Source: Armatimonadota bacterium (GTDB lineage Bacteria > Armatimonadota > Fimbriimonadia > Fimbriimonadales > GBS-DC). From it: a stretch of DNA of 64,000 nucleotides. The stretch covers positions 4,225 to 68,224 of the forward strand of contig JBBIML010000008.1 of NCBI GenBank assembly GCA_037444405.1, read 5' to 3'. Position 1 is the first letter of the stretch. The number at the start of each line of letters is the position of its first letter. The notes beneath the pieces are model-generated. The model was not told where the DNA came from, did no database searches, and worked only from the letters and a program-made list of their open reading frames with translations. Positions 26,909 through 63,479 of the stretch are shown here, piece by piece. Made by a program: the position numbers and the translations under genes.

Positions 26909-29352
26909 GAGGAACCCTCCAGCGCGTCCTCTATCAGAAAAGTGATCAGTTGCTGGAAGGGGATGCCTGCCGCCTCCGCACTGCGCGGCAAGAGCGAGGT
27001 GGGGGTTAAGCCCGGAACGGTGTTCACCTCCAGCACGAAGGGCACGCGCTCGCGCAGGATCATATCCACACGGCTCATGCTGCGGCAGCCGAGCGCGCAG
27101 TGCGCCTGCAGGGCGGTCGCCATCAGCACATCCAGCAGTTCATCGGGCAGGCGAGCGGGCACGATCTCCTCTGTCCAGCCGGGGGTGTATTTCGCCTGAA
27201 AGCCGTAGAAGCCGCCGCGGGGCACAATCTCCACAGGGGGCAGCGCGCGCGGATGGCGCGTGCCAATCACGGGCACGGAGACCTCCACACCCTCAATCAG
27301 CTCCTCGATCAGGGCGCGCTCGTCGTAGGCGAATGCCTTCCGCAGGGCACGGGGCAACTGCTCCCACTCCCACACGCGCGTCGTGCCCAGCGTGGAGCCG
27401 CCCTCGTTGGGCTTCACAATCAGCGGCGGCTTCAGCCCGGCAAGCTTCGGGCTGGCGGCAGGCGTTAGCAGTTCATTCAGCTCCGCACGCGATACCAGCA
27501 CGCCGCGTGGCGTGGTGATGCCCGCCGACTGCAATACGATTTTGGCGGCGTATTTGTTCATGGCGAGCGCGCTGGGCAGGATGCCCGAACCTGTGTAGGG
27601 GATGCCAAGCATCTCCAGCAGACCCTGAATCGCGCCGTCCTCACCGTGCCGACCGTGCAGGGCGATGAAAGCGAGATCGGGACGCTCGCTCTGCAATAAA
27701 TCGAGCAGTCCCCAGACGCCCTCCCTGCCGCGCATCAGGGCGGGGTCCACAGGGATGCCGATGTAGCGGTCGGGGTCGAGCGCCTGTAGCACGCGCGAGC
27801 CAGAGAGCAGCGACACATCGCGTTCGGGCGAGTCGCCGCCCATCAGCACGGCGATGCGCAGTCGCCGCACCTGACCCCGCGCCTCCAGCATGCGCAGCAG
27901 GGCGGGCGCCACCTTATCGATATCGCCTGCGCCCATCGTGACCACTACATCGCCCGGCGTCAGATGGGGCAGGAGGCGAGCGGGGATCTGCTCCTTGATG
28001 GGCACATAGAGCGTGGGTGGCTGATCGCCCTCCAGCAAGCCGTCGGCAATCAGCGACGCGCTCACACCCGGGATGGGCTTCTCGCGAGCGGGATAGATAT
28101 CGGTGATGACCACCATGTCGGCGCCGCGCAGGCTCTGGATCAGCCCTTCCAGCAGGTCGCGCGTGCGACTGTACAGATGCGGCTGGAAAAGCACAATCAG
28201 GCGGCGGTTGGGGAACCGCTGGCGCAACGCGGCGAGCGTGGCGTCGATCTCCGTCGGGTGGTGCGCGTAGTCGTCCACGAGCGCGATGCCCATCGCCTCG
28301 CCAATCAGCTCCTGCCGCCGCCGAACGCCCTGAAACCCTGTTAGTGCACGCTGTGCCACCGCCATCGGGATGTTCAGCAGCTGGGCGACGCCGATCGCGC
28401 CCAGCGCGTTCAGCACATTGTGGTCGCCCACAAGCGGCAGGGAGAAGTCCCCATCGGCTGTGGATGGCACCCCCTCACCCGTACCCTCGCTTCTGCTGGA
28501 GGAGAGGGGTTGATTCTTCACGCGGAAGCGGGTGATGGAGGGTGTTCGCTCGATGATTGCGGCGTGCAGATCGTTGTGAGGCGCGAAGCCGTACAGCAGG
28601 CGTGGGCGCGGCACATCGCCACGCTCACAGAGCCGCTGTACCCCCGGATGATCCCCGCAACCAATCCAGCACCCTTCGGGTTTCAGCTGCTGCAGGAAGC
28701 GGGCGAAACTCGTTAGCAGATTCTCGAAAGTGCCGTGATAATCGAGGTGGTCGGGTTCGATGCTGGTGATGAGCGCGATTTCGGGCTGGAAGTCCAGAAA
28801 CGACTCATAGGCTTCGCAGGCTTCGACGACCGCCCATTCGCCGCTGCCCAGCCGGATATTGCCTGCCCATGGGGGCATGGTGAGCGGCGTGTCGGCGCCC
28901 AGCAGCACGAGCGGGTCGTAGCCGCCCGCTTCCAGAATGGCGGCAACGAGCGCGGTGGTGGTGCTTTTGCCGTGTGTGCCGCTGATGGCAATCACGCGAT
29001 AGGGCTTCAGCAACCAGCCCATCAGTTGCGAGCGTCGCCAGATGGGCAGGTGGCGACGCTGTGCCTCTATCACTTCGGGGTTATCGGGATGGATGGCGTC
29101 GGACACAATCAGCCAGTCGGGTTCGCCCATTCGGGCGGGGTCGTGAGGCGCGTAGGCACGGATACCACGCGTGCGCAGCGACTCCAGCGCGGGCGAGTCG
29201 GCAAGGTCGGAGCCGCTGACCGTCGCGCCCTTTTCGGCGAGCCAGCGTGCCAGCGCGGACATGCTCGCGCCCCCGATGCCCACAAAATGGAATCGCATCT
29301 GGAGGCTGGGTTCGCGGTCGGTCGTCAGCGGGATGCCTGTCGGGGACTGCAT
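26905..29352 (-). CDS. murC-ddl: Fused UDP-MurNAc-L-Ala ligase and D-Ala-D-Ala ligase
   Basis: MurC: HFVGIGGASMS, SGTHGKSTTT, DDYAHHPTE, FQPHLYSRT. Ddl: VLMGGDSPERDVSL, HGRHGEDG, AKY, LEVNTVPGLT. One unbroken frame. Confidence 0.95.
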   Translation of the reverse strand: MQSPTGIPLTTDREPSLQMRFHFVGIGGASMSALARWLAEKGATVSGSDLADSPALESLRTRGIRAYAPHDPARMGEPDWLIVSDAIHPDNPEVIEAQRRHLPIWRRSQLMGWLLKPYRVIAISGTHGKSTTTALVAAILEAGGYDPLVLLGADTPLTMPPWAGNIRLGSGEWAVVEACEAYESFLDFQPEIALITSIEPDHLDYHGTFENLLTSFARFLQQLKPEGCWIGCGDHPGVQRLCERGDVPRPRLLYGFAPHNDLHAAIIERTPSITRFRVKNQPLSSSRSEGTGEGVPSTADGDFSLPLVGDHNVLNALGAIGVAQLLNIPMAVAQRALTGFQGVRRRQELIGEAMGIALVDDYAHHPTEIDATLAALRQRFPNRRLIVLFQPHLYSRTRDLLEGLIQSLRGADMVVITDIYPAREKPIPGVSASLIADGLLEGDQPPTLYVPIKEQIPARLLPHLTPGDVVVTMGAGDIDKVAPALLRMLEARGQVRRLRIAVLMGGDSPERDVSLLSGSRVLQALDPDRYIGIPVDPALMRGREGVWGLLDLLQSERPDLAFIALHGRHGEDGAIQGLLEMLGIPYTGSGILPSALAMNKYAAKIVLQSAGITTPRGVLVSRAELNELLTPAASPKLAGLKPPLIVKPNEGGSTLGTTRVWEWEQLPRALRKAFAYDERALIEELIEGVEVSVPVIGTRHPRALPPVEIVPRGGFYGFQAKYTPGWTEEIVPARLPDELLDVLMATALQAHCALGCRSMSRVDMILRERVPFVLEVNTVPGLTPTSLLPRSAEAAGIPFQQLITFLIEDALEGSS
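28470..28509 (+). repeat. Hairpin repeat copy, in-frame inside murC
   Basis: ccccctcacccgtaccctcgcttctgctggaggagagggg. Confidence 0.8.
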
Positions 29353-29364
29353 GGTGGCTCCTCC

Positions 29365-30483
29365 TTATCGGGGTCTTTCTGGGCGCGACGCCCAGTCTAC
29401 GAGCGTGTCGCGAATGACCTGCAGCACGCGCTGGGTGGCGTCGGGGATTGCCCACTGGCGGGCACGCTGGCGCATCTCCTCCCGTCGTTGCGGGCATTCG
29501 TGGAGAGTGGTCAGCATCTGTGCCAGCGCGCTCGGTGAGAGGGCGGACTGTTCGATCATCAGCGCGGCTCCCCGTTGCACCATCGCCTCACAATTATACC
29601 GCTGGTGCGCGCTGGCGGCGAAGGGATAGGGGATCAGCACGGCGGGCAAACCGTTCAGCGCGAGTTCGGTGATGGTGCCCGCGCCGCCGCGCGCGACAGC
29701 CACATCCGCCGCGCGATACGCCAGCCCCATCTGCTCCGCATTCAAAAAGGGCAGGGGATGATAGTTGCCGTTGAGCGCGAGGCGGTCCGCCGTTGCGCGA
29801 ACCATCTCGTAGTGCGCCTCGCCTGTGATGTGCAGCCACTGGATGGGCGTGGCGGGCATATATTGCACGGTGTTCAGCACCGCCTCGTTCAGCGACTGCG
29901 CACCCTGACTGCCGCCAATCACCAGCACGGTGAAACGCTCCGGCGCCAGCCCGAACGATTCGCGAGCGGTTGCCACGGGCACATCGGGGCGACATACATC
30001 CGGGCGCACGGGCAAGCCTGTGCGAACGGTTTTGCCGCGCGGGAAATGGGCGGCAGCTTCCTCGAAGTTGATGCAGATACACGCTGCGAACCGTGCCAGA
30101 TGGCGGTTGGCGCGCCCAGGGTAGGCATCGGGTTCCAGCAGCACCATCGGCTTGCGGCGGCTGCGCTGGGCGAATGCAATCGGCAGCGCGGAGTAGCCCC
30201 CCGTGCAGAGCAGCAGCTCGGCGTCGAACTGGTCGAGAGCGCGTCGGGCTTCGGCACGCAGGCGTAGCAATGTGAACGGCAATCGCCACGGGACCCGCGC
30301 AGCGGGTCGCAGGTGGCTCATATCGAGCAGCAGGGCAGGGAAGGGCAGGGCGAGACGCGCCTCCAGCCCGTGCCGGGCGCCCAGATACAGCACGCTGGCG
30401 CCCTCCCGCTGGAGCGCTTCGCCCACACACAGCGCGGGGAACAGATGCCCGCCCGTGATACCGCCCGCTATCGCCACCCTCAT
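29365..30483 (-). CDS. murG: MurG GlcNAc transferase
   Basis: TGGHLFP, GGYS, GGSQGA, ARGGAGT, HQRYN. Start at ATG 30483 (ATGA overlap with ftsW). Confidence 0.95.
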   Translation of the reverse strand: MRVAIAGGITGGHLFPALCVGEALQREGASVLYLGARHGLEARLALPFPALLLDMSHLRPAARVPWRLPFTLLRLRAEARRALDQFDAELLLCTGGYSALPIAFAQRSRRKPMVLLEPDAYPGRANRHLARFAACICINFEEAAAHFPRGKTVRTGLPVRPDVCRPDVPVATARESFGLAPERFTVLVIGGSQGAQSLNEAVLNTVQYMPATPIQWLHITGEAHYEMVRATADRLALNGNYHPLPFLNAEQMGLAYRAADVAVARGGAGTITELALNGLPAVLIPYPFAASAHQRYNCEAMVQRGAALMIEQSALSPSALAQMLTTLHECPQRREEMRQRARQWAIPDATQRVLQVIRDTLVDWASRPERPR

Positions 30484-31757
30484 CGCGTCTCCCTCGCAAT
30501 CGCCTGCGCGATTCCCAGCGCCGCCATCAGACTCAGCAGGGCGGAGCCGCCTGCGCTGACGAACGGCAACGGCAACCCCACTGTCGGCAGCAGCCCTATC
30601 GCCATGCCGATATTGATCAGCGCCTGCAGTCCGATCCAGAGCGCCAGCCCACCCGCGAACAGCCGTCCAAACCGTGTGGGCGCCCGCGCCGCCAGCTTCA
30701 GGCACGCGCCCACCAGCCACACAAACAGCCCGATGCACAGCATACTGCCCGCGAAGCCCGTCTCCTCAGCGATTGTGGCGAAGATGTAGTCGTTCTCGGC
30801 AGCGGGCAGGTAGCGTTTCTCGCATCCCTCGCCAATCGCAAGTCGTCCGATGCCGCCGCTGCCCACCGCGATCTGCGCTCGCACCATCTGGTAGCCGATG
30901 TCATGCTCATACTCCCACGGGTCCAGCATCACCAGAATGCGCTTCAGCCGATAGCCCGTCTCATCGATGGCGTGTGGCTTATCGATGAACGCCGCTTTGA
31001 TGGCGGGCAGGCAGATGAGCAGTGTGAACGCCATCAGGCTCGCCAGCCCCAGCAGGGCGATTCGGGTCAGGCTCGCCCCACCCAGAAACGCCACACCCAC
31101 ACCCAGCGCGAAGATGAGCACCATTGTGCCGAAGTCGGGCTGACGCTCAATCGCGATCAGCGCAATCAGCCAGAGCGCGATCAGCCCGTAAGCGGCTTTG
31201 CTCCATGCCCGGCGCTGGCTATAAAGCGCGGCAAAATAGAGCAGGGTTGCCAGCTTAAACATCTCGGAGGGCTGGACGCTGATGCGTCCCAGCGCGGGCA
31301 GCGTGAACTCGAACCAGCGTACTGCGCCGTTGCGCTCCACACCCAGCCCCGGTATTCGCCAGAGCGCGATCAGCACCAGGGCGCTCAGCACCAGCCAGAA
31401 CCACGCGCTCGCCTGGTAGAAACGCGACGGAATATGAGCCAGTATCAGCATCATGCCCGCGCTTAGCAGCACCCAGCACGCCTGCAATATCACGGGGCGA
31501 AACGGCTCCATCGGCGAGGCGGCGCTGGTCTTCAGAAGGTCACCAATCTGTACACTGGTCTGAAACACCAGCCCGATCAGGCAGAGTGTGAGGGGCAGCC
31601 AGAACAGTGCGTGCCGTACACCCTGCAGTGCTGCTCGCTCGCGCTCACCTCGCTGCAAGGGCGTGGTCGCCGCACCTCTCCTCGCCAGCCGCCTGTGCCG
31701 AAATGTCAGCGGCTGGATGATCGCTCCCATACGCCGGCGCGATATAGCCTTTATCAT
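30480..31757 (-). CDS. ftsW: SEDS protein FtsW
   Basis: NGAVRWF, VQPSEMFK, QPDFGT, GYQMVRAQIA, LPAAENDYIFA, GLPLPFVSAGGS. Start at ATG 31757 (ATGA overlap). Confidence 0.93.
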   Translation of the reverse strand: MIKAISRRRMGAIIQPLTFRHRRLARRGAATTPLQRGERERAALQGVRHALFWLPLTLCLIGLVFQTSVQIGDLLKTSAASPMEPFRPVILQACWVLLSAGMMLILAHIPSRFYQASAWFWLVLSALVLIALWRIPGLGVERNGAVRWFEFTLPALGRISVQPSEMFKLATLLYFAALYSQRRAWSKAAYGLIALWLIALIAIERQPDFGTMVLIFALGVGVAFLGGASLTRIALLGLASLMAFTLLICLPAIKAAFIDKPHAIDETGYRLKRILVMLDPWEYEHDIGYQMVRAQIAVGSGGIGRLAIGEGCEKRYLPAAENDYIFATIAEETGFAGSMLCIGLFVWLVGACLKLAARAPTRFGRLFAGGLALWIGLQALINIGMAIGLLPTVGLPLPFVSAGGSALLSLMAALGIAQAIARETR

Positions 31758-33154
31758 CCCTGACCTCGCTCGCTCAGTGTTCGCACGCATGCGCGGAACC
31801 GCTCGCCGCGCTCGATAAAGTTGCGGAACTGATCGAAGCTGGCACAGCCTGGCGCCAGAATCACCGTTTCGCCCGATTGCGCCAGCGCGAACGCCTGCTC
31901 GACGGCGCGTTCCAGCGTGCCTGCGTAGCGCCAGTTCGTGTAGCCTGCCGCGCTCAGGCACGCGCCGATGCGTTCGCCATCCCGACCGATCAGCATCGCC
32001 GCGCGGCAATATCGGCGGATTGCATCGGCGAGCTGCTCCGCTGAATCGTTCTTGTCGACGCCGCCCGCAATCACGATGCAGGGCTTGGGCGCAAGGCGCA
32101 GAGAGTAATCGAGCGCGGCGGCGTTTGTACACATCGAATTGTTGATGAACCGCACGCCCTTGATTTCGGCGACGAACTCCATGCGGTGAGGCACGCCGCG
32201 AAAGCTTGCCAGCGCTGTTTGAATCTGCGCCTCGCTACAGCCCACTATCCGCGCGACAGTTGCTGCTAAAAGTGCCCCCTCACCCATACCCATACCCTCT
32301 CCCCCGCAGGCGGGAGAGAGGGCTTTGAGGTCTTCATCTCCCCACAGGGAAGCGGGATTCAGGATCAGATGTCCCGCGCGTTCCACATTCAGCAGTCCGG
32401 GGCAGTTCTCGGCACGCAGCCATTTTAGAAGCTGCTGGATGCCTGCGTCGTTGCCGTTCAGCACTGCCCAGTCGTCGGGCGTCAGGTTCTCCAGCAATCG
32501 CCCCTTCGCCCGCGCGTACGCCTCAAAACTGCCGTGATAGTCCAGATGGTCGGGCGTGATGGTGGTGATGACCGCGATGCGCGGGCGAAATTGATGGATG
32601 TTTTGCAGCTGAAACGAGCTAACCTCCGCCACAAGCCACTCGTCGGGCTGCGCCTTGAGCGCGGCGGTGGTGAGCGTCTGGTCGCTTTCGGTGCCCGCGA
32701 TATTGCCGCACAGGTGCGCCCGGATGCCTGCATGGGTCAGCAGGTGGTGGATGAGCGCGGCGGTCGTCGTTTTGGCGTTCGTGCCCGTGATGGCAATAAT
32801 GGGCGCCTTTGCGAGGCGGTAGCCCAGCTCGATCTCGCTCCAGATGGGGACACCGTGCGCGCGGGCGCCCTCAAACAGCGGGTGCGACGGGGGCAGGGCA
32901 GGGCTGACGATAATCAGATCGGGCGGCGATTCCCAGTCAGGCACATCCTGTTGCGGGAACTCTGCAATGGTGATTTCCATATCAGGATCGGCTGGTGCGT
33001 CTTCCAGATGCGCTATCAACTGTTCCAGTGCATCCAGCTGCATGTCGCGGTCATACAGTTCGAGGGTGGCGCCGCGCTGGAGCAGGGCAGCCGCAGCGGC
33101 TATCCCACTGCGCCCCGTGCCAACGATTGCCACCCGCATCTCGCTCCAGTTCAT
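31754..33154 (-). CDS. murD: MurD ligase with divergent motifs
   Basis: VSPALP, AEVSSFQL, ITPDHLDYH, FRGVPHRMEF, LAPGCASFDQF; position between mraY and ftsW. Confidence 0.9.
   Translation of the reverse strand: MNWSEMRVAIVGTGRSGIAAAAALLQRGATLELYDRDMQLDALEQLIAHLEDAPADPDMEITIAEFPQQDVPDWESPPDLIIVSPALPPSHPLFEGARAHGVPIWSEIELGYRLAKAPIIAITGTNAKTTTAALIHHLLTHAGIRAHLCGNIAGTESDQTLTTAALKAQPDEWLVAEVSSFQLQNIHQFRPRIAVITTITPDHLDYHGSFEAYARAKGRLLENLTPDDWAVLNGNDAGIQQLLKWLRAENCPGLLNVERAGHLILNPASLWGDEDLKALSPACGGEGMGMGEGALLAATVARIVGCSEAQIQTALASFRGVPHRMEFVAEIKGVRFINNSMCTNAAALDYSLRLAPKPCIVIAGGVDKNDSAEQLADAIRRYCRAAMLIGRDGERIGACLSAAGYTNWRYAGTLERAVEQAFALAQSGETVILAPGCASFDQFRNFIERGERFRACVRTLSERGQG
32275..32322 (+). repeat. 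Hairpin repeat copy, in-frame inside murD
   Basis: ccccctcacccatacccataccctctcccccgcaggcgggagagaggg. Confidence 0.88.
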
Positions 33155-34209: not shown

Positions 34210-34223
34210 CTTGCTCAATGTTG

Positions 34224-34264
34224 CCCCCTCACTCGTACCCTCTCCCCATAAACGGGGGAGAGGG
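34224..34264 (+). repeat. Hairpin repeat copy between murF and mraY
   Basis: ccccctcactcgtaccctctccccataaacgggggagaggg. Confidence 0.88.
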
Positions 34265-34271
34265 AGGTTGA

Positions 34272-35672
34272 TTACGCCTTCACGCCCATGATGCGTTCCA
34301 GCCCGATGGCGCGGGAGCCTTTGAGCAGCACCCAGTCGCCTCTTTGCACATTGCGCCAGAGCCACTCCCCTGCGCTCAGCGGGTTCTCGAAGTGCAGCAC
34401 GCGCTGAGGGGGGAACCCGCCCTCCCTGGCGGCAGCCGCCGTCCATAGCACATCGTAGCCGACCAGAATCAGGTAATCAAGCGGCTGAGTGGCAAGCCAG
34501 CGCCCCAGTTGCCAGTGCAGGCGCATGCTATAGGCGCCCAGCTCCTTCATATCGCCCAGAATGGCGATTCGGCGTTTCGCCGGCGCCTGATAGAGCAGCA
34601 CCTGCAGCGCCGCGCGCATCGAATCGGGGTTCGCGTTGTAGGCGTCGTTAATGAGCGTCCAACCGCCGGGCTGGGGCTGAATGTTCATGCGCATCTCGGG
34701 CAGTTGCACCTGCTCCAGCGCGCGTGCCGCCCACTCCAGATCGACGCCCAACACGGCAGCGACCAGCAGGGCGACCGTCGCATTCATCAGCAGATGCTCG
34801 CCCAGATAGGGCAGGGTGAGTTCAACAATTGCTCGCTCGCCTGTGGCGGGTGTCCGAATCTGGATGACGCCTGTGGTGCTGTCAGGCGCAAGGCGCGTTT
34901 CGAGCAGGCAGGCGTCTGATTCGGGATGGCGTCCGAAAGTCAGCACAGGGCAGGGCGCCAGCGAGCGCAGGAACTCATAGAACTTATCGTCACGGGGCAG
35001 GATCGCCCACCCGTCAGGCGGCAACGCCAGCAGCAGCTCGCCCTTCGCCTCTGCAATCGCCTGACGGCTGCCCAGCAGCTCGATGTGTGACCAGCCGATT
35101 TGAGTGATGACGCCGATTTGAGGGCGGGCGATCTCGGCAAGGTAGGCGATTTGCCCGCGCCCGCGCATCGCCATCTCCTGCACCAGCACCCGGTGGTGCG
35201 CCTCCAGCCCGAAGATAGTGAGCGGCACGCCAATCTCGGTGTTGAAGTTGCCCGGGCTGCTCTGAATGGCGCCGGGGTAGCCCGCTTCAAGCGCGGCGGC
35301 GGTCATCGCGCGTGTGGTGGTCTTGCCCGTGCTGCCCGTGATGCCGATAACCACCAGATCGGGCACCTGCATGCGGTAGTGGTGCGCCAGCGTGCCCAGC
35401 GCCTGCAGGGTGGAGGGCACGCGCAGCAGGGGCAGCCCTTCCGCGCCAATCGGGATATACTCCACCACCGCGGCGACCGCGCCCTTCGCGAACACCTCTT
35501 GCAGGTACATGTGTCCATCGGTGCGCTCGCCCCGCAGCGCGAAGAACAGGTCGCCCACCTGCACATTGCGGCTGTCGGTCGTGACGCCCTGCACGCGCTC
35601 CTCGCCCGTCAGCAGCACGGGCAGGCTCACGTGCAACGCCTGCGCAACCTCGCGTGTGGTCATCGCTCTCAT
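34272..35672 (-). CDS. murF: MurF ligase
   Basis: TDSR, ITGSTGKTTT, NFNTEIGVP, INDAYNANPDSM, LGDMKELG, LKGSR. Confidence 0.95.
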   Translation of the reverse strand: MRAMTTREVAQALHVSLPVLLTGEERVQGVTTDSRNVQVGDLFFALRGERTDGHMYLQEVFAKGAVAAVVEYIPIGAEGLPLLRVPSTLQALGTLAHHYRMQVPDLVVIGITGSTGKTTTRAMTAAALEAGYPGAIQSSPGNFNTEIGVPLTIFGLEAHHRVLVQEMAMRGRGQIAYLAEIARPQIGVITQIGWSHIELLGSRQAIAEAKGELLLALPPDGWAILPRDDKFYEFLRSLAPCPVLTFGRHPESDACLLETRLAPDSTTGVIQIRTPATGERAIVELTLPYLGEHLLMNATVALLVAAVLGVDLEWAARALEQVQLPEMRMNIQPQPGGWTLINDAYNANPDSMRAALQVLLYQAPAKRRIAILGDMKELGAYSMRLHWQLGRWLATQPLDYLILVGYDVLWTAAAAREGGFPPQRVLHFENPLSAGEWLWRNVQRGDWVLLKGSRAIGLERIMGVKA

Positions 35673-37255
35673 GCTCGCTTCGCTCCCATCAACTCCAGCA
35701 CGGTCTCACGGTCGCTGAATGGAAACTTTGTCGTGCCGATAATCTGATAGTTCTCGTGTCCTTTGCCTGTTAGCAGGATCAGCTCGCCCGCGATTGCCTG
35801 CGCCAGAGCAATCGCGATTGCGGCGCGCCGATCGGGTTCAATCGCCACCACTTTCTCGCGTCGTTCGGGCGGGATGCCTGCCACTATTTGCTCAAGGATG
35901 CGTTCGAGCGGTTCGGTGCGCGGATTATCGGCGGTCAGGATCACGCGGTCGGCGAGTTCGGTGGCGATGGCGCCCATCACGGGGCGTTTGGTCGGGTCGC
36001 GGTCGCCCCCGCAGCCGAACAGGATGGTGAGGCGTGTGGGTTCCAGCGCCCGTGCCGCCTCCAGCAGGCGTCGGAGGGCGTCGGGCGTGTGCGCGTAGTC
36101 CACAATCACGGTGAAGGGAGCATCGATGGGCACACGCTCGAAGCGCCCGGGCACACGCTCCACGCGTTGCAGACCCTCCTGAATGGCTTCAATCGGCAGT
36201 TCGAGGCTGAGCGCGGCGGCAATCGCGCCCAGCGCGTTCTGCAGGTTGTACGGGGCACTGAGCCGAATGCGGGCGGGGAAGCGCAACGGCTTGCCTGCAT
36301 CCGCCTGCACGATGAACTGGATGCCATCGGTGTGAATCTGCACATCGGTGGCTCGCACGCGCGCGTTCGGCTGCGTGCCGTAAGTCCACAGATCGCCTTC
36401 GGCACGCTCGGCGAACCACGCGCCCCATTCCGCATCGAGATTGATGACGGCGCGGAACGGTTTGCCCGACTGGCGTGCCAGCTCGGTGAACAGGCGCAGT
36501 TTGGCGGCGGCGTAAGCCTCCATCGTGGGGTGATAGTCCAGATGTTCAGGCGTGAGGTTGGTGAAGATGCCTGCGTCGAAGCGGATGCCGTCGGCGCGGC
36601 GCTGGTCGAGCGCGTGCGAGGAGACCTCCATCGCGACGGCGCGGGCGCCCCGCTCCAGCGCACGGCACAACAGCGCCTGCAGCACAAACGGCTCTGGCGT
36701 GGTCAGGACAGGTCCCTCACCCCCTGCCCCCTCTCCCACGCTGTGGGAGAGGGGATTTTCCATACCCCTCTCCCCCGCAAGCAGGGGAGAGGGTACGGGT
36801 AAGGGGGTATTTTCCAGTGGCTGGGGTAGCACGACGCCCAGCGTGCCAATCAGCGCACAGGGCAGACCTGCCGCCTCGAAAATCGCGCGCATCAGGTGCG
36901 TGGTGGTGGTCTTGCCGTTGGTGCCCGTGACGCCCACCACCGTTAGCTGGCGACTCGCGTCCCCGTAAAATCGTTGAGCGATTCGCCACAGTGCATCGCG
37001 CGTGTCGTCCACCTGTGCCCATGCGGGGGCGTCGGGCGGGATGGCGCGTGCATCGCTCACCAGCAGCGCGGCGGCGCCCCGCTTAATCGCCTCTTGCAAG
37101 AACTGATGCCCGTCGTGGCGCGTGCCTTTGAGCGCAACGAACAGATCGCCCGCCTGCACCTGACGCGAATCGACCTGAATGGCGCGGATCCAGCTGTCGC
37201 CATACAGCCGATGCGCCACGCCAGCCTCCTGCAACAGTTCGCTCAAGCGTTTCAT
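35669..37255 (-). CDS. murE: MurE ligase (meso-DAP type, DNPR motif)
   Basis: VTGTNGKTTT, MEVSSH, FTNLTPEHLDYH, VDYAHTPD, DNPR, GKGHE. Confidence 0.96.
   Translation of the reverse strand: MKRLSELLQEAGVAHRLYGDSWIRAIQVDSRQVQAGDLFVALKGTRHDGHQFLQEAIKRGAAALLVSDARAIPPDAPAWAQVDDTRDALWRIAQRFYGDASRQLTVVGVTGTNGKTTTTHLMRAIFEAAGLPCALIGTLGVVLPQPLENTPLPVPSPLLAGERGMENPLSHSVGEGAGGEGPVLTTPEPFVLQALLCRALERGARAVAMEVSSHALDQRRADGIRFDAGIFTNLTPEHLDYHPTMEAYAAAKLRLFTELARQSGKPFRAVINLDAEWGAWFAERAEGDLWTYGTQPNARVRATDVQIHTDGIQFIVQADAGKPLRFPARIRLSAPYNLQNALGAIAAALSLELPIEAIQEGLQRVERVPGRFERVPIDAPFTVIVDYAHTPDALRRLLEAARALEPTRLTILFGCGGDRDPTKRPVMGAIATELADRVILTADNPRTEPLERILEQIVAGIPPERREKVVAIEPDRRAAIAIALAQAIAGELILLTGKGHENYQIIGTTKFPFSDRETVLELMGAKRA
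36714..36807. repeat. Two inverted hairpin repeat copies, in-frame inside murE (36714-36754 and 36765-36807)
   Basis: ccctcaccccctgccccctctcccacgctgtgggagagggg followed by ccctctcccccgcaagcaggggagagggtacgggtaaggggg. Confidence 0.9.
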
Positions 37256-40994: not shown

Positions 40995-41023
40995 ATTATA
41001 GCACACGAATGCGCGTTTGTCAA
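40995..41023 (-). promoter_or_regulatory. Consensus sigma70-type promoter of the dcw operon
   Basis: TTGACA (41023-41018), 17 nt, TATAAT (41000-40995). Confidence 0.9.
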
Positions 41024-41127: not shown

Positions 41128-41169
41128 CCCCCTCACCCGTACCCTCTCCCCCGCAAGCGGGGGAGAGGG
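41128..41169 (+). repeat. Hairpin repeat, most perfect copy (intergenic)
   Basis: ccccctcacccgta + CCCTCTCCCCCGC-aa-GCGGGGGAGAGGG, a 13-bp perfect inverted repeat. Confidence 0.92.
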
Positions 41170-45267: not shown

Positions 45268-46113
45268 CTAAAACCCGAACAGTGTTTCGACGGCGCCCGA
45301 CGGGCGAATGTCAAAATATTTACGCACCCCGTACGATTCGCACACCTTCATCAGCTCCACATCGGCATTAATGAGCTTCTGATCCACATCGGATTGAGCC
45401 GTGCCGCGCATATTCATCAGGCGGTTGAGGTCCTGCTTCTGCATGGCGTCTTCGATCTGGAGCATGAAGGTAACATAGCTGCTGAGCGCAGCGTCGTAGG
45501 TGTCGGCTAACACGCGGCACTCAGCGGGCGGCGGCACAGAGCGATATTCGCGCAGCAGCCCTGCCCAATCCTGCTGATAACGCTGATAGCCCTGCTGCAG
45601 GTTTTGCATTTTTTCCTGTTGCTTCTCCTCGTCCAGTTCCAGTTTGAGCGCTAAGGCGTCTTTAAGCATTTCCAGCGCGGGATTGAAGTTGCGCTCCATC
45701 GTGCGGCGTTTCATCTCGATGCGGCGCAGGTGTTCGAGCCAGTTGATAACATGCTGGGGCGCCTGTTTGGGCTGGGGCGTCTCGGTTTGCAGCACGCTGG
45801 GACCCGACGGCTTTGGCGCTTCGGCTTGCAGCACGCTGGGCGCTGGGGGCTTGGGCGCCTCCGCCTCCAGCACGCTGGGACCCGCAGGCTTTTTCACCTG
45901 CGCCCGGGTGAGCAGTCCGCTGCGGATGCCGATGAAGGCGACAGCCCCCAGCAGCACCAGCACTCCCAACGCGAGCGCGAGCCACCGGAGTGCGCGACTA
46001 CTGCTGGAGCTAACGGGCGGGCTGCTCATCAGCGTGGCTGTGAGCGGGCGACCGCAGCGCAGACAGAACTGCGCGTTCTCTGGCAACGGCTGCCGACAGT
46101 TCGGACATTGCAC
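45268..46113 (-). CDS. Zinc-ribbon membrane protein with a Pro-rich repeat linker
   Basis: CPNC...CLRC, one TM, three 13-aa repeats, helical C-terminus. Confidence 0.7.
   Translation of the reverse strand: MQCPNCRQPLPENAQFCLRCGRPLTATLMSSPPVSSSSSRALRWLALALGVLVLLGAVAFIGIRSGLLTRAQVKKPAGPSVLEAEAPKPPAPSVLQAEAPKPSGPSVLQTETPQPKQAPQHVINWLEHLRRIEMKRRTMERNFNPALEMLKDALALKLELDEEKQQEKMQNLQQGYQRYQQDWAGLLREYRSVPPPAECRVLADTYDAALSSYVTFMLQIEDAMQKQDLNRLMNMRGTAQSDVDQKLINADVELMKVCESYGVRKYFDIRPSGAVETLFGF
45770..45890 (-). repeat. Three 39-bp coding tandem repeats
   Basis: cagcacgctggg recurs at 45790, 45829 and 45868. Confidence 0.8.
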
Positions 46114-51721: not shown

Positions 51722-51767
51722 GCCGATAATCGGGTATAGATGGCGGACGAGGAGCGTACGGAGCAGG
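51722..51767 (+). repeat. 46-bp direct repeat, left copy (duplicate of the flhB 5' end; right copy 52481-52526)
   Basis: gccgataatcgggtatagatggcggacgaggagcg(t/c)acggagcagg, one mismatch. Confidence 0.93.
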
Positions 51768-52428: not shown

Positions 52429-52498
52429 CGCTCTAAATATACCCGCTTGCTAACGGTGTGGTGAGAAGTGCCTTCCCTGTGCCGATAATCGGGTATAG

Positions 52499-53542
52499 AT
52501 GGCGGACGAGGAGCGCACGGAGCAGGCGACGCCGCGCCGGCGGCAGGAGGCGCGGCGCAAAGGGCAGGTAGCACGCTCGGCGGAGGTGAACGCCGCCTGC
52601 GTGTTTCTGGCGTTCGTGCTGATGCTGCCGCTCGTGCTGCGCTGGGGCGGCGAGCGACTGCTGCTGACCGTTCAGCACGGCATTCTCGCGGCAGGCTCGA
52701 TGCGCCCGTCGGAGGCGGTGCTGTGGAGCGCGCTCGCCATGCTGACGCCCATCATGGGGCTGGCGCTGCTCGTCGCGCTGGTCGCCAACCTGATTCAGGT
52801 CGGCTTCACCCTTTCTGCCCATCCTCTTCAGCCCGATTTGAACCGCATCGATCCCATCAAGGGCTTCCAGCGGCTCTTCTCGGCGCGGGCGATGGTGGAG
52901 CTGCTCAAGGCGTTGCTCAAGTTCGGGCTGATTGCGTGGGTGGCGTGGCGCACCCTTCAGGGCGAGCTGGACGCGCTGATGGCGACCGCCCGGATGCCCC
53001 TGCCCGACGCGCTCGCGCCAATCGGGAATGCGCTCTATCAGGTCGGGCTGCGTGTGGGCGTCCTGTGGCTGATTCTGGCACTGCTGGACTATCTCTATCA
53101 GCGGTGGGAGTTCGAACGGAGCATTCGCATGTCGCGCTATGAGCTGCTGGAGGAGTTCCGCCAGACGGAGGGCGACCCCCATGTGCGCATGCGTCAGCGC
53201 CAGCGAATGCAACAGATTGCGCGTGCGCGGCAGATTATGGAGGTGCGCCGTGCCGATGTGGTGGTCACGAACCCGGTGACTTATGCGGTGGCGTTGCGTT
53301 ATGATCGGGCGAGCATGCGGGCGCCGCGTGTGGTTGCCAAAGGGCGGGGCTGGCTCGCGCGGCGTATTCGGGAGGAAGCGCTGCGTTGGCATGTGCCCAT
53401 CGTGCCGAACCCGCCGCTGGCGCGCAGCCTCTACGCGCAGGTGGAGGTCGGGCAGGAGATCCCGGCGGCGCTCTATCAGGCGGTGGCGGAGGTGCTGGCG
53501 TATGTGTACCGCCTGCGCCGCGCCCATAGACCAACCCCTTGA
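52499..53542 (+). CDS. flhB: Flagellar/T3SS export switch protein FlhB
   Basis: ERTEQATPRRRQEARRKGQV, RIDPIKG, EEFRQTEGDP, TNPVTYAVALRY, VVAKG, LYQAVAEVL. Confidence 0.9.
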   Translation: MADEERTEQATPRRRQEARRKGQVARSAEVNAACVFLAFVLMLPLVLRWGGERLLLTVQHGILAAGSMRPSEAVLWSALAMLTPIMGLALLVALVANLIQVGFTLSAHPLQPDLNRIDPIKGFQRLFSARAMVELLKALLKFGLIAWVAWRTLQGELDALMATARMPLPDALAPIGNALYQVGLRVGVLWLILALLDYLYQRWEFERSIRMSRYELLEEFRQTEGDPHVRMRQRQRMQQIARARQIMEVRRADVVVTNPVTYAVALRYDRASMRAPRVVAKGRGWLARRIREEALRWHVPIVPNPPLARSLYAQVEVGQEIPAALYQAVAEVLAYVYRLRRAHRPTP

Positions 53543-53587: not shown

Positions 53588-53663
53588 GGGCGAATAGCTC
53601 AGGTGGGAGAGCGCTTCCCTTACAAGGAAGAGGTCGCAGGTTCGAGTCCTGCTTCGCCCACCA
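53588..53663 (+). tRNA. tRNA-Val(UAC)
   Basis: Anticodon arm CTTCC-CT-TAC-AA-GGAAG, CCA end. Confidence 0.97.
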
Positions 53664-53680
53664 TCGCCGCGTGTGGGGCA

Positions 53681-53758
53681 GGGGCTGTAGCTCAGCCAGG
53701 TCAGAGCGCCAGCCTGTCACGCTGGAGGTCGCGGGTTCAAGTCCCGTCAGCCCCGCCA
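53681..53758 (+). tRNA. tRNA-Asp(GUC)
   Basis: CCAGC-CT-GTC-AC-GCTGG, CCA end. Confidence 0.97.
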
Positions 53759-53771
53759 GCCGGGTAGATTT

Positions 53772-53846
53772 GCCGGGGTAGCTCAGTGGTAGAGCACGGG
53801 ACTGAAAATCCCGGTGTCGTCGGTTCGACTCCGACCCCCGGCACCA
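53772..53846 (+). tRNA. tRNA-Phe(GAA)
   Basis: CGGGA-CT-GAA-AA-TCCCG, CCA end. Confidence 0.97.
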
Positions 53847-53848
53847 AC

Positions 53849-53934
53849 GGGCGAGTGGTGGAACTGGTAGACACGCCAGACTTAGGATCTGGTGGGCACT
53901 GCCCGTGGGAGTTCGAGTCTCCCCTCGCCCACCA
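53849..53934 (+). tRNA. tRNA-Leu(UAG)
   Basis: CCAGA-CT-TAG-GA-TCTGG, long variable arm, CCA end. Confidence 0.97.
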
Positions 53935-53958
53935 AAATCGGGTATAATACATACATGA

Positions 53959-54033
<75 letters not shown>

Positions 54034-55956: not shown

Positions 55957-57207
<1,251 letters not shown>

Positions 57208-57260
57208 ACAAGGCAGGAATCGGGCGCTGGCGCGTCTAATCGAGCAGGTGGGATGAAACG

Positions 57261-58523
57261 ATGATGTACGGTGGAATGCGTGGTTCCGGCAGAATGTTTC
57301 GGTTGCTGATCCGCCATGCAGGCGTCACGCGCGAGATGGGCGGCGAGGAGCTCTCGCTCGCTGTGCAGCGCGTCGACCGCATGTTTATCGAGGCGCTCGA
57401 AGCGGGCGCGTCCGATATTCACATGCACCCCGAACGCAACATGCTGCGCATCCGGTTCCGCATCGACGGCGTGCTGCACGAGCATGAGACCATCACGGAG
57501 CCTGATCTGTGGCAGGCGATGATTGCACGGGTCAAGCTCGCCGCCAATATGCATTTAGACGAGAAGCGCGACACGCAGGACGGGCGCATCGATATGGAGT
57601 ATATGGACCGGCGGCTCAGCGCGCGCGTCTCCTGTATCCCGTCGCTGAACGGCGAGCGCATCGTGATGCGCATTCTGGATCCAGCCAAGATGATGGTCAA
57701 ACTCGACACACTGGGCATGCCGCAGGATGTGCTGGCGAACTGGCGCCGCGCCCTGCAGGTCGCCTACGGCATGCTGGTCGTCACCGGTCCCACAGGCTCC
57801 GGCAAAACCTCCACGCTCTACGCCTCGCTCCACACGCTCGATCGCGTTCACCGCAACATCGTCACGGTGGAAGACCCGGTGGAGTACGAGTTCCCCGATA
57901 ATGTGATGCAGGTGCAGGTGAGCGATAAGATTACTTTCCCGCGTGCGTTGCGGGCGATGCTGCGACACGACCCCGATGTGATTATGATTGGCGAGATTCG
58001 CGACCGCGAATCGCTACAGATAGGCATTCAGGCGGCGCTCACGGGGCATCTGGTGCTGTCCACGCTGCACACCAATAACGCCATCGAGACCATCAGCCGC
58101 ATGATCGATATGGGCGCGGAGGATTATCTGATTGCGGCGACTCTGCAGTGCGCGATGGCGCAGCGACTGGTGCGTCTCATCTGTCCCGATTGCCGCACGC
58201 CCTATCAGCCGACGGCGGACGAACTGACGGCGTTGCGCATCCCGAAAGAGACCGCCTCGCAGTTCCAGTTCTTCATCGGCAAGGGCTGTACGCAGTGTCG
58301 GGGCACAGGCTTTCGCGGGCGCACGGGGATTTTTGAGCTGCTGCGTATCAGTCCTGCTATCCGCGAGGCGATTGTGAATCGCGTGCCGGGCGACCAGATT
58401 CTGCAGATTGCCCAGAAAGAGGGCTTCCGCACGATGCTGGACGATGGGCGCGATAAGGTGCTGCGCGGCTTGACCACCCCCCACGAGGTGATTCAGGCGG
58501 TGTATGCCGGGGTCTATGAGTAG
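57261..58523 (+). CDS. GspE/PilB-family secretion ATPase, short N-terminus
   Basis: [55 protein letters not shown]...CTQC. Confidence 0.93.
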   Translation: MMYGGMRGSGRMFRLLIRHAGVTREMGGEELSLAVQRVDRMFIEALEAGASDIHMHPERNMLRIRFRIDGVLHEHETITEPDLWQAMIARVKLAANMHLDEKRDTQDGRIDMEYMDRRLSARVSCIPSLNGERIVMRILDPAKMMVKLDTLGMPQDVLANWRRALQVAYGMLVVTGPTGSGKTSTLYASLHTLDRVHRNIVTVEDPVEYEFPDNVMQVQVSDKITFPRALRAMLRHDPDVIMIGEIRDRESLQIGIQAALTGHLVLSTLHTNNAIETISRMIDMGAEDYLIAATLQCAMAQRLVRLICPDCRTPYQPTADELTALRIPKETASQFQFFIGKGCTQCRGTGFRGRTGIFELLRISPAIREAIVNRVPGDQILQIAQKEGFRTMLDDGRDKVLRGLTTPHEVIQAVYAGVYE

Positions 58524-59652
58524 CGTTGACGCCGCGCCCAAAGGGTTCGCCTTTGAGGTTCTTGCCCGCTCAACCCGCAGCCATGCGCGGCTGGGACGAC
58601 TGTATACGCCACACGGGATTGTCGACACGCCCGCCTTCATGCCCATCGGCACGCAGGCGACGGTCAAAACGCTCAGCCAGGAGGAGCTGGAAACACTCGG
58701 CTACGCGCTTATCCTGGCGAACACCTATCACCTCTATCTGCGTCCGGGCGCGGAGCGCATCGCGCGGCTGGGCGGGCTGCACGCCTTCATGAGCTGGCGC
58801 GGCGCGATTCTGACCGACAGCGGCGGCTATCAGGTGTTCAGCCTGACGCCCCTGCGCGAAATCGACGAGGACGGGGTGACCTTCCGCTCGCATATCGACG
58901 GCTCGCTCCATCGGCTCACGCCCGAACGCGCAGTGGAAGTGCAGCGACTGCTCGGCAGCGATATCGCGATGGCGCTCGATGAGTGCCCGCCCTATCCCGC
59001 CGATTACGACCAGGTGGCGCAGGCGACCGAGCGCACCTACCGCTGGGCGATTCGCTGTAAACAGGCGTGGCTCCAGAGCTTTGAACCACTCGCCCCGACT
59101 GGTGAGGAAGAGGGAGCGGGTGAGGGAGTTCTCTTCGGTATCGTGCAGGGCGGTGTGTATGAGAACCTGCGCCAGATGAGCATCGAGCAGATAACCAGCC
59201 TCAATCTGCCCGGCTATGCGATTGGCGGTGTGTCGGTGGGCGAGCCTGCGGAGCTGATGTGGGCGGTGGTGGAGTTCACCGCGCCGCGTCTGCCCATCGA
59301 CCGCCCCCGCTATCTGATGGGCGTTGGCACGCCCGACGACATTCGGCACGCCGTCGCCTGCGGTGTGGACCTGTTCGACTGCGTGCTGCCCACACGCCTG
59401 GGGCGACATGGCGCGGTGTTCACTTCGCGCGGGCGGCTCAACCTGCGCAACGCGCGATTCGCCGAGTGCAAAGAGCCGATTGACCCCGAGTGCGACTGTG
59501 CCGTCTGCCAGCGATACAGCCTCGCCTACATTCATCACCTGTTTCGTGCGGGCGAGATGCTGGGCTATCGGCTGGCGTCCTATCACAATCTGGCATATTA
59601 CGCCCGCTGGATGCGCCGTTTGCGCGAGGCGATTGCGGCGGGCACGCTCTAA
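58516..59652 (+). CDS. tgt: tRNA-guanine transglycosylase
   Basis: TPAFMPIGT, NTYHL, LTDSGGYQ, FGIVQGG, RYLMGVG, DLFDCVLPTR, CDCAVC. Confidence 0.96.
   Translation: MSSVDAAPKGFAFEVLARSTRSHARLGRLYTPHGIVDTPAFMPIGTQATVKTLSQEELETLGYALILANTYHLYLRPGAERIARLGGLHAFMSWRGAILTDSGGYQVFSLTPLREIDEDGVTFRSHIDGSLHRLTPERAVEVQRLLGSDIAMALDECPPYPADYDQVAQATERTYRWAIRCKQAWLQSFEPLAPTGEEEGAGEGVLFGIVQGGVYENLRQMSIEQITSLNLPGYAIGGVSVGEPAELMWAVVEFTAPRLPIDRPRYLMGVGTPDDIRHAVACGVDLFDCVLPTRLGRHGAVFTSRGRLNLRNARFAECKEPIDPECDCAVCQRYSLAYIHHLFRAGEMLGYRLASYHNLAYYARWMRRLREAIAAGTL
59086..59126 (-). repeat. Degenerate hairpin repeat copy, in-frame inside tgt
   Basis: Reverse complement ccctcacccgctccctcttcctcaccagtcggggcgagtgg. Confidence 0.7.
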
Positions 59653-60323: not shown

Positions 60324-60816
60324 CCTCTCCCTCCTGCAGAGCGGCTTTAAGACGCTGATAGGTCTCTTCGAGGCTTTCGGGCAACACACGCACCTCGCCG
60401 ATGGTGGTCATGAAGTTCGTGTCGCCGTGCCAGCGGGGCACGATGTGTAGGTGCAGGTGCCCCTCGATGCCTGCGCCTGCCGCACGCCCGATGTTGAAGC
60501 CGATATTGAAGCCGTCAGGCTGATAGACCTGCTCCAGCGCCCGCACGCATCGCCGTGTCAGTCGCCACAGGTCCAGGCTCTCCTCATCGCTTAGCCCGCT
60601 GATGTCGGGCAGATGGCGGTACGGCGCGACCATCAGATGCCCGCTGGTGTAGGGGAAGAGATTGAGCATCGCGAAGGCATGCGTGCCGCGCAGCACGATA
60701 AGGTTGGCGTCATCCTGCTGCTCGGCGGGTTTGGCACAGAAGATACAGCCCGTGTCGCCCTTGCCAGCCGTGCGCACATATGGCATCCGCCACGGCGCCC
60801 ACAACCGCTCACTCAT
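60301..60816 (-). CDS. HIT family hydrolase
   Basis: LWAPWR, CIFC, NLFPYTSGHLMV, HLHLHIVPRW. Start ATG 60816, 7 nt after GG-TATACT. Confidence 0.93.
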   Translation of the reverse strand: MSERLWAPWRMPYVRTAGKGDTGCIFCAKPAEQQDDANLIVLRGTHAFAMLNLFPYTSGHLMVAPYRHLPDISGLSDEESLDLWRLTRRCVRALEQVYQPDGFNIGFNIGRAAGAGIEGHLHLHIVPRWHGDTNFMTTIGEVRVLPESLEETYQRLKAALQEGEDATGAPR

Positions 60817-60861
60817 GGAAACAAGTATACCTGCCCCCACACCGAGCGTTCAGGCGAGCGG

Positions 60862-62091: not shown

Positions 62092-62191
62092 CGATATCTC
62101 CCACCTTTATTATACTCCATTCGGGGGCTGAACGGCTCGCCGAATCGCCTGATTTGCCCGCCTCGATGAAGGAATCGGCGCGAAGATGGGG

Positions 62192-62218
62192 TATAATAGA
62201 GGTGTTGAAACGCTTCAA
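62192..62218 (+). promoter_or_regulatory. -10 box plus a palindromic LacI-type operator candidate
   Basis: TATAAT 62192-62197; TTGAAACGCTTCAA 62205-62218. Confidence 0.55.
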
Positions 62219-62262
62219 AGACGGGGCGATTCAACATATCTCTGAAACGGAGGTGTTATGCG

Positions 62263-63438
62263 ATGAGGCTGAATCGATGGCTTCTGGGTTTGATACTGGG
62301 CGCGCTCTGGGTTAGCCCCGCGCCCGCGCAGGTCGTGTTCTCATTCGAGACCCCCGATCTGCATGGCTACGCCGACGACGCCGATCCGTCCGACTACTGC
62401 GATGCCGTCGGCTGGGAGAACTGCTGGCAAATCTTTCAGGCGACGCAGGGCGTCACCCACGGCAACTACTCGATGGGCGTGAAGTGGCCGGGTGGTTTCC
62501 GCTGGCTGATCAGCGGCAGCGTGCCCGATATGCTCGCGGCTCTTCGCACTGAACAGCGCCTGCTGGTGGACATCACTGTGCCCGCGGGTGTGTCTGTGCC
62601 GTGGGCAAACTTCATCGTGGCGTTCAACGATGGTGAGCTAGGCTGGCGCCAGACAAACTGCAATCAGGCGACGATCCCACGCAACCCCGGCAGCTACACC
62701 GTGATGATCGACACGCGCTCGCTGGCGCTGCCCTCTGGTGAATACAACGACTGGTTCCAGTTCAATTTGGGGCTGAACGCGGGTGGACACCATGAGATTT
62801 ATGTGGACAGCGTGCGCCTGTTTGACGATTCGCGCACGCAGGTGGCGTTCAGCTTCGACAGCGACACGCAGGGCTTCAGCTCCAGCGGTGCAAGCGTGAG
62901 CTGGGACAACGGCGCGATGCGGGTCGAATGGGGCGGCGGCTTCAACTGGATTACAGGCGGCTCCACCCCTGGTCTTGCGTCGCTGATCCGGCGCGGGCAC
63001 ATCCTGGTGATGGACATCACCGTGCCATCAGGCACTTCGGTGCCCTGGGCGAGCATGATTATCGCCTTTAATGACCCTGCAGGCTGGCGGCAGACCACCA
63101 ACCCGATCGAGCTGCCCGTGTGCGCAGGCAGTTTCAGCCTTGCAGTGGACTATCGGGAGCTGGCGCTACCCGACGCTGGCGTGGAGTGGTTCACTCTGAA
63201 CCTCGGCGTTAATGCTGGCGGGGCGCACACCATCCTCATCGATAATATCCGCGTGCTGGTGGAGCCGGTGCCTGGCGATGTGGACGGCAACGGCTGCGTG
63301 GATGACGCCGACCTGCTGGCGGTGCTGTTCGCGTTTGGCTGCAGCAGCGAGTGCGGCGCTGAGGATGTGAACGGCGACGGCGTGGTGGATGATGCCGATC
63401 TGCTGACTGTGCTGTTCAACTTCGGACGGGGTTGTTAA
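62263..63438 (+). CDS. Secreted protein: two tandem CBM-like beta-sandwich repeats plus a dockerin/EF-hand-like C-terminal domain
   Basis: Signal peptide ending APA-Q; repeat DITVP.G.SVPWA..I.AFND..GWRQT...NLG.NAGG.H.I.(V/I)D; twin motif GDVDGNGCVDDADLL / EDVNGDGVVDDADLL. Confidence 0.8.
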   Translation: MRLNRWLLGLILGALWVSPAPAQVVFSFETPDLHGYADDADPSDYCDAVGWENCWQIFQATQGVTHGNYSMGVKWPGGFRWLISGSVPDMLAALRTEQRLLVDITVPAGVSVPWANFIVAFNDGELGWRQTNCNQATIPRNPGSYTVMIDTRSLALPSGEYNDWFQFNLGLNAGGHHEIYVDSVRLFDDSRTQVAFSFDSDTQGFSSSGASVSWDNGAMRVEWGGGFNWITGGSTPGLASLIRRGHILVMDITVPSGTSVPWASMIIAFNDPAGWRQTTNPIELPVCAGSFSLAVDYRELALPDAGVEWFTLNLGVNAGGAHTILIDNIRVLVEPVPGDVDGNGCVDDADLLAVLFAFGCSSECGAEDVNGDGVVDDADLLTVLFNFGRGC

Positions 63439-63439
63439 G

Positions 63440-63479
63440 CCCCCCTCACCCCTACCCTCTCCCCCGCTGGGGGAGAGGG
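63440..63479 (+). repeat. Hairpin repeat copy directly after a stop codon
   Basis: cccccctcacccctaccctctcccccgctgggggagaggg. Confidence 0.9.

Follow-up and report, generated by a model that had tools for sequence, protein, structure and literature searches.

How does one short palindromic repeat come to lie, without breaking the reading frame, inside several conserved genes of a single bacterium? The question is raised by a stretch of 64,000 nucleotides (assembly GCA_037444405.1, contig JBBIML010000008.1, positions 4,225 to 68,224), referred to below as the window. The original prediction, which was drawn from the letters of this DNA, listed eight copies of the repeat, three of them intergenic and five in-frame (murC-ddl, murD, murE twice and tgt), and took it for a non-autonomous mobile element. 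The sequence and its translation confirmed the eight copies, their positions, the division between spacers and genes, and the peptides that had been quoted. The repeat is not specific to one lineage: a closely similar unit is present in Escherichia coli at about 82% identity, a 22-mer from it occurs in many phyla, and the repeat belongs to the family known as BoxC, PIT or TMECO. We put a probability of roughly 0.75 on the reading that the eight sites are copies of a BoxC/PIT/TMECO-type repeat which entered permissive loops in this lineage and which then expanded, contracted and decayed. MurE homologues place the window in the Armatimonadota, order Fimbriimonadales, the best named match being bacterium HR15 (73% identity; its locus is L002). 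A closer match is an NCBI protein, 94% identical, from the metagenome-assembled genome (MAG) GCA_037445735.1. The corresponding locus of that MAG, L001, is colinear with the window at 92% identity overall and 93–97% in the colinear blocks.

Read on its G-rich strand, the unit consists of a hairpin (CCCTCTCCCCC, a loop of 3–6 nt, GGGGGAGAGGG), 3 nt (TAC) and a third arm, GGGTGAGGGGG. This arm is the mirror image of the purine arm, an arrangement that permits an intrastrand purine-motif triplex; set antiparallel to GGGGGAGAGGG, GGGTGAGGGGG gives allowed triplets (G.G-C, A.A-T, T.A-T) at 11 of 11 positions as read from the sequence. Among 94 hairpin readings in the lineage 33 possess a third arm that is triplet-compatible at 9/9 positions, with 3-nt spacing and on one side, and the remainder score 6 or less. 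A test of the third arm as a mirror versus a direct repeat, with 24 informative cases split 15 to 3, is weak because the 9-nt core arm is itself mirror-symmetric; 11-nt arms are clearer. What the original prediction had set down as a tail would, on this pairing, be the third strand of the triplex motif.

This is the design of TMECO, described by Holder et al. 2015 (NAR 43:10126; PMC4666352) as the same thing as BoxC and the PIT element, with credit to BoxC descriptions of the 1990s and to the PIT work of Maher and colleagues in 2000. These authors counted 3610 TMECO copies in 262 proteobacterial genomes and found, by circular dichroism and nuclear magnetic resonance, that the isolated E. coli strand adopts a stable class II purine triplex in vitro. 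They also saw two subtypes pairing in inverted orientation and a higher indel variability of the sites from strain to strain, found no connection with mobile elements, and gave the location in E. coli MG1655 as “always located intergenically”. The TMECO pattern (CCCTCNCCC, N3-6, GGGNGAGGG, N3, GGGNGAGGG; one mismatch allowed) matches the window exactly at 41130-41169 and 63443-63479, with 0 matches expected by chance. With stems of 11 nt in this lineage, the first gap had to be made wider; the strict form with a first gap of 3–8 nt finds one copy and the wider gap two, and the other copies, which deviate by mismatches or indels, needed a profile. Chromosomes of E. coli match the unit over 92–96% of the query in 5003 of 5426 genomes, an example from the tauD-hemB spacer (no gene is annotated under it) reading CCCTCGCCCCC TT GGGGAGAGGG TTA GGGTGAGGGGG.

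Two subtypes are found in this lineage as well: A, with a GTA linker and 11-nt stems, and B, with CCAA in the linker region, 10-nt stems and an AGN loop. Six composites in the sister MAG each comprise a B unit, a linker of 9–11 nt and an inverted A unit. Single units measure 36–42 bp and the composites, which have inverted ends, about 90–105 bp; linker sequences between units recur. The two murE copies had been correctly placed and wrongly separated: they form one inverted pair at 36714-36808, and the same paired form is seen in Mesorhizobium and E. coli.

The half-motif TACCCTCTCCCCC, with two mismatches or fewer, matches the window 11 times versus 1.03 expected, and 11 was reached in none of 100 shuffles. 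A profile built from copies in a related genome recovered six copies at significance (values in Table 1). The copy at 36714 took its profile score from the hairpin alone (E 0.1), because of an indel in its tail, and the tgt copy fell below significance (E 9.8). Both weak copies are supported by a second comparison, in which 38-mers over the whole 64 kb were set, ungapped, against the 41130 copy: only the eight listed sites reach 26/38, and the 29/38 of the tgt copy was attained in none of 200 Markov shuffles of the window. In the intergenic copies the hairpin is strong (z −2.6 to −4.4), and the murE pair taken as a composite folds well too (z −4.62); folding is partial in murD (z −2.6), and the hairpin has been lost in the murC (z −0.01) and tgt (z −1.4) units. 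A scan of the window with Rfam at gathering thresholds returned tRNAs only.

The coding copies are in-frame additions, absent from orthologues of MurE, MurD, MurC and Tgt. In an alignment of 32 MurE sequences residues ~150–181 of the window protein fill the loop between IGTLG and LTTPE, where most orthologues have about 14 residues, and the NCBIfam and PDB alignments are interrupted at this place. An AlphaFold2 model computed on the same alignment has a mean pLDDT (predicted local distance difference test score) of 89.4 and a pTM (predicted template modelling score) of 0.88; pLDDT drops below 50 in residues 151–180 only, with no secondary structure there. The MurE segment is accordingly modelled as a disordered loop on an otherwise confident fold. 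From the MurD and MurC-Ddl of HR15 the segments are wholly missing. The Tgt loop between KQAW and LFGI has 7–8 residues in most orthologues (it is short in the TGT of Zymomonas), 15–17 in relatives of 85% identity, and 20 in the window. A decayed unit in the opposite orientation is present in this loop of relative L127, which points to independent entry at a permissive site. To judge from their frames, the inserts would be translated as tolerated surface loops, and these are rich in Gly, Glu, Pro and Ser, much as the Gly/Glu/Pro-rich loops that had been foreseen.

Most of what can be said of the history of the element comes from its behaviour between close relatives. The dcw cluster of the window lies on the minus strand and comprises, by NCBIfam, murC-ddl, murG, ftsW, murD, mraY, murF, murE and a penicillin-binding protein. 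In a global alignment with L001, scored for indels of at least 30 bp in the conserved dcw part, all five such indels proved to be element DNA. The surplus in L001 amounts to 105 bp beside the 41128 copy, 37 bp (a tandem second copy) at 34224, 36 and 105 bp in murD, and 147 bp in murC. Each coding indel (36, 105 and 147 bp) is a multiple of three; excision of the inserts from the RNA, or translational bypass, was set aside because these indels preserve the frame. The MurD (513 amino acids) and MurC-Ddl (870 amino acids) of L001 contain four-unit clusters versus one unit each in the window. The murD unit of the window joins the loop of the first full (tailed) L001 unit to the 3’ end of the last, and the murC unit is a comparable chimera of units from the L001 cluster. 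Since L001 keeps the clusters and the window units are chimeric, we read single degenerate copies as deletion products, and the murC copy is probably the chimeric remnant of a four-unit cluster. The original prediction had taken the degeneracy of the murC and tgt copies as a sign of age, which fits tgt, whose copy is old and decayed, and is too simple for murC.

Between the window and L001 no element site is filled in one genome and empty in the other; on this timescale the element has changed by growth and shrinkage in place and not by new insertion. Between the two genomes identity in the murE insert is 85%, versus 94–97% for its flanks. In addition, two hairpin loops are exactly inverted, GCTTGC/GCAAGC at 41150 and CACAGCGTG/CACGCTGTG in murE (36735), and these may be read as the footprint of template switching across the palindrome.

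A scan with the tail-plus-arm 22-mer CCCTCACCCNTACCCTCTCCCC, one genome being taken per species, gave at least 119 loci. The matches listed are from Alpha-, Beta-, Gamma- and Deltaproteobacteria, Verrucomicrobiota, Omnitrophota, Nitrospirae, Nitrospinota, Planctomycetes, Chloroflexi, Rokubacteria and Armatimonadota. Within the Fimbriimonadales the mur genes are repeatedly occupied, at sites that differ in part between relatives: locus L123 has three units in murE, two in murD and two in murC-ddl, and L124 four in murE and three in murF; the mur genes compared at the HR15 locus have none. In the sister MAG, where about half of the units surveyed are coding, an M16 peptidase carries three clusters and a dCache/HAMP sensor four units. 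In-frame copies are also found beyond the phylum, in CobN of Aminobacter and Mesorhizobium composti (PLSPSLRGEGKGEG), DnaX of Rhizomicrobium (SLSPTGGEGKGEG), PriA of a Nitrospinota MAG (PPSPLWGEGKGEG), a UvrA-like protein of Ottowia and a TonB-receptor-like protein.

The suggestion that copies survive in stop-free frames only carries little weight, because the consensus unit is open in five of its six frames and stop avoidance therefore explains little. The actual pattern is narrower. Verified genes of the window and the sister MAG gave 20 full-length units, a count that includes orthologous and clustered copies and is not one of independent events: all 13 with the G-rich strand as sense are read in the frame LSPxxGGEGTGEG, and six of the seven with the C-rich strand as sense in PSPxPSPxxGE, so that two frames cover 19 of the 20. 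The CobN, DnaX and PriA copies of other phyla use the same peptide frame. The unused open frames would give Arg-rich peptides such as ...GERVRVRG and ...PRKRGRG. A protein database search with a 54-residue composite repeat peptide scored nothing, probably on account of low complexity.

Table 1. Repeat units of the window and the genes that carry them; positions are those of the window, and E values are from the profile scan.
Feature	Position	Strand	Remarks
murC-ddl unit	28470..28511	+	Degenerate; encodes QPLSSSRSEGTGEGV; tail intact, hairpin gone; profile hit at 28471, E 8.7e-6
murD unit	32275..32322	+	Encodes ALSPACGGEGMGMGEGA; 6-nt duplication inside the unit; profile hit at 32277, E 1.7e-6
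Intergenic unit, murF-mraY spacer	34224..34266	+	Between the murF stop and the likely mraY start; profile hit at 34225, E 2.2e-7
murE inverted pair	36714..36808		Encodes MurE residues ~150-181 (TPLPVPSPLLAGERGMENPLSHSVGEGAGGEG)
murE pair, first member	36714-36756	+	Tail-first
murE pair, second member	36765-36808	-	Profile hit at 36806 (minus strand), E 1.8e-7
Intergenic unit, near-perfect	41128..41169	+	Between an AhpC/TSA-family gene and the mraZ promoter; exact match to the TMECO regular expression; profile hit at 41129, E 1.5e-10
tgt unit	59086..59127	-	Decayed; encodes PLAPTGEEEGAGEG; in the variable loop between KQAW and LFGI
Intergenic unit, near-perfect	63440..63481	+	Directly 3’ of the ORF (open reading frame) 62263-63438; followed by a T-run (terminator-like context); profile hit at 63442, E 7e-11
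murC-ddl	26905..29352	-	Fused UDP-MurNAc-L-Ala ligase and D-Ala-D-Ala ligase; NCBIfam
murD	31754..33154	-	NCBIfam
murE	35669..37255	-	NCBIfam
tgt	58504..59652	+	NCBIfam

The course of events that we propose is as follows. Units would have entered permissive surface loops, those of MurC-Ddl, MurD, MurE and Tgt in the window and of MurF, the M16 peptidase and the sensor protein in relatives, where after translation they would form disordered loops rich in Gly, Glu, Pro and Ser. Selection would retain the copies that are in frame and free of stops, and would prefer frames that avoid Arg-rich peptides. Slippage or recombination between units, together with template switching at the hairpins, might then make clusters grow, shrink and decay, which would explain isolated degenerate units like those of murC and tgt. 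We infer both the neutrality of the inserts and the slippage mechanism from the comparisons above.

Several points weigh against this proposal. No clean filled/empty pair was found among the loci compared, so that the boundaries of insertion and any target-site duplication are undefined, and the roughly 20 kb that were compared, at 6–8% divergence, showed no de novo insertion. The MurE insert is present in some relatives of 70% identity and absent from others, which fits repeated gain or repeated loss. That the inserts are translated is suggested by frame conservation, and three coding indels would all be multiples of three by chance in about 1 of 27 cases; the frame counts, as stated, include copies that are not independent. 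The genomes compared are all metagenome assemblies. Finally, a triplex was not detected in vivo in E. coli (PMC4666352), and that of the window units is a prediction from their letters.

Three other explanations have been weighed against the entry and later turnover of a BoxC/PIT/TMECO-type repeat. One is that the coding “copies” are ordinary low-complexity variable loops whose likeness stems from G+C-rich codon usage or from an assembly artefact. The tgt copy, not significant by profile and lying in a loop whose length varies in all TGTs, would suit this; against it, coding copies score E 1e-5 to 1e-7 with the intergenic profile, the murE pair folds well and murD in part, 26/38 is reached at no further site in 64 kb, and the segments are missing from orthologues. 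An artefact is further opposed by L001, an independent assembly in which the same sites are filled, and by the units in L123 and L124, further independent assemblies. This explanation is already largely refuted and we hold it to be very improbable. A second makes the inserts selected functional modules, for instance flexible acidic linkers by which the enzymes are tuned, or structures in DNA or RNA with a regulatory role in the dcw operon. It could account for the narrow choice of frame across phyla, the reuse of the same loops in MurE, MurC and Tgt, and the location of six of the eight window copies in the dcw cluster, but inserts diverge faster than their flanks, copy number varies between close relatives, HR15 and many orthologues do without inserts, the MurE insert is predicted to be disordered, and the murC and tgt hairpins have gone. 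Selected modules thus strike us as a poor prospect.

The third concerns the means of movement. The original prediction had proposed a search for a linked transposase of the HUH/RAYT type, and the units might be repetitive extragenic palindromic (REP) elements moved in trans by a REP-associated tyrosine (RAYT; HUH Y1) transposase encoded elsewhere, the coding copies being by-products. Size and palindromic form are REP-like, the mosaics resemble the bacterial interspersed mosaic elements (BIMEs) built of REPs, and subtype A has the tetranucleotide GTAC ahead of the stem. REP superfamilies, however, are tagged GTAG or CGTC (PMC3733652), and that position varies here (GTAC, ATAC, CTAC, CCAA); in E. 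coli no link to mobile elements was found (PMC4666352). No HUH/RAYT or other transposase was found among the window ORFs scanned, and no transposase family was enriched among the ORFs clustered from the 119 motif loci listed, in which ABC transporter ATPases and other common paralogues alone recurred; of this lineage the 64 kb and scattered loci were covered. The linked transposase thus found no support, and we regard movement by a RAYT as unlikely. A bolder extension of the preferred reading can also be framed: that BoxC/TM-type repeats are pan-bacterial, self-propagating DNA without a dedicated transposase, which copies itself by structure-driven template switching or repair and routinely colonises genes in one preferred frame (LSPxxGGEGxGEG). 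We consider it a tentative idea, doubtful as matters stand; if it were true, these repeats would generally, and so far unnoticed, supply conserved proteins such as the Mur ligases, Tgt, CobN, DnaX and PriA with disordered loops and linkers.

The window element resembles BoxC/PIT/TMECO in its three-arm design, near-identical sequence, two subtypes that are often paired in inversion, lack of a known transposase, and local indel instability between close strains. It differs in that conserved genes hold five of the eight window copies in frame, whereas those of E. coli MG1655 are intergenic; in its stems of 11 nt versus 9 and its longer mosaics; and in its host, a member of the Armatimonadota as against the 262 proteobacterial genomes of the TMECO census (PMC4666352). 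In behaviour the closest system is that of the Rickettsia palindromic elements (RPEs), and the comparison with these made in the original prediction was a fair functional analogy. According to a 2024 review of prokaryotic MITEs, or miniature inverted-repeat transposable elements (PMC10969869), RPEs are about 150 bp long, fall into ten families, are confined to Rickettsia and relatives, and are treated as an exceptional case. Both are palindromes lying in-frame in unrelated housekeeping genes, with about half of the copies coding and with fold-compatible peptides; this is shared behaviour and not evidence of membership. The window units, compared with RPEs by description, are 36–42 bp long, possess a triplex-type third arm and occur across phyla, and the element is outside the RPE family.

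With REP and BIME sequences (Di Nocera et al. 2013, PMC3733652) the element shares short G+C-rich palindromes, mosaics of alternating orientation, short linkers and strain-variable copy number; it differs from them in the lack of a conserved GTAG/CGTC tag, in that no RAYT was found, in its third mirror arm, and in not being confined to extragenic DNA. ERIC, QMITE1 of Coxiella (PMC5896051) and the Anabaena MITEs (listed in PMC10969869) are likewise small non-autonomous repeats that can be read within host ORFs, but they are larger, are bounded by terminal inverted repeats, and have neither the triplex motif nor its cross-phylum conservation.

The literature searched, which was limited in breadth, contained no report of in-frame BoxC/TM units, and on in-frame repeats in Armatimonadota or follow-up work on BoxC/PIT Holder et al. 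2015 was all that it gave. Both the element family and the in-frame phenomenon are known by themselves; their combination appears to be unreported in that literature. The case joins two fields, that of the BoxC/PIT/TMECO triplex motifs, whose role and spread have been unclear since the 1990s and which have been called intergenic, and that of RPE-type in-frame insertion, which has been held peculiar to Rickettsia. Should the pattern extend genome-wide, the motifs would be a repeated cause of longer loops and linkers in the essential enzymes of different phyla, the inverted hairpin loops and the polymorphism of the coding clusters would be natural evidence of the structures forming in vivo, and such segments should be expected by those who annotate metagenome-derived proteins or predict their structures.

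Some features of the host genes deserve separate mention. The fusion of murC and ddl is a single ORF of 815 amino acids, common to HR15 and the other relatives examined. In MurD the unit (window 32270-32330, residues ~278–300) occupies the place of the GxHNxxNAL segment of other MurD proteins; HMMER pairs the insert with the GxHNxxNAL motif of 3lk7, and HR15 is likewise without a recognisable motif there. From these alignments the MurD of the window’s clade may be divergent at this site. In several MurE orthologues the PYNLxNALAA helix is closely preceded by low-complexity inserts of another kind, such as VPPASRGEPPPRSPCVQGEPQGGGS (murE of L125, protein P0043; alignment columns 500-600); the motif pattern did not match them, and they may derive from a different repeat family. 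The mraZ gene is preceded by a perfect sigma-70-type promoter at 40995-41023 on the minus strand (TTGACA, 17 nt, TATAAT, and a TG upstream); the 41128 unit is found upstream of this promoter at a distance of about 105 nt.

Denser arrays of the motif are seen in other phyla. In a Verrucomicrobiota MAG (L014 1340-2700) six motif copies recur with a period of about 257 bp in a cassette-like layout, in every period a tail-first unit is separated from an inverted one by ~110 nt that vary in sequence, and a conserved ~60-nt spacer follows; in an Omnitrophota MAG (L017 6880-7300) more than ten motif units are packed into ~400 bp. Contigs of the sister MAG start or stop inside units (L081 position 1; L084 3776-3861), and the repeat probably fragments short-read assemblies of these genomes.

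Elsewhere in the window, positions 1-5000 have a G+C content of 52% versus ~64%. An RHS-repeat protein with a DUF4329 tip ends there, and three direct repeats of ~1.7 kb, 71–87% identical, come after it; the arrangement resembles an Rhs toxin locus that has orphan toxin or immunity cassettes. The tRNA genes form a cluster of five at 53588-54030, with one isolated gene at 12206-12280. The gene for a zinc-ribbon protein (45268-46113, minus strand) includes three tandem 39-bp repeats, 74–83% identical, at 45769-45892. Lastly, a 46-nt direct repeat, 98% identical, is located at 51722-51767 and 52481-52526, the two copies being 759 bp apart.

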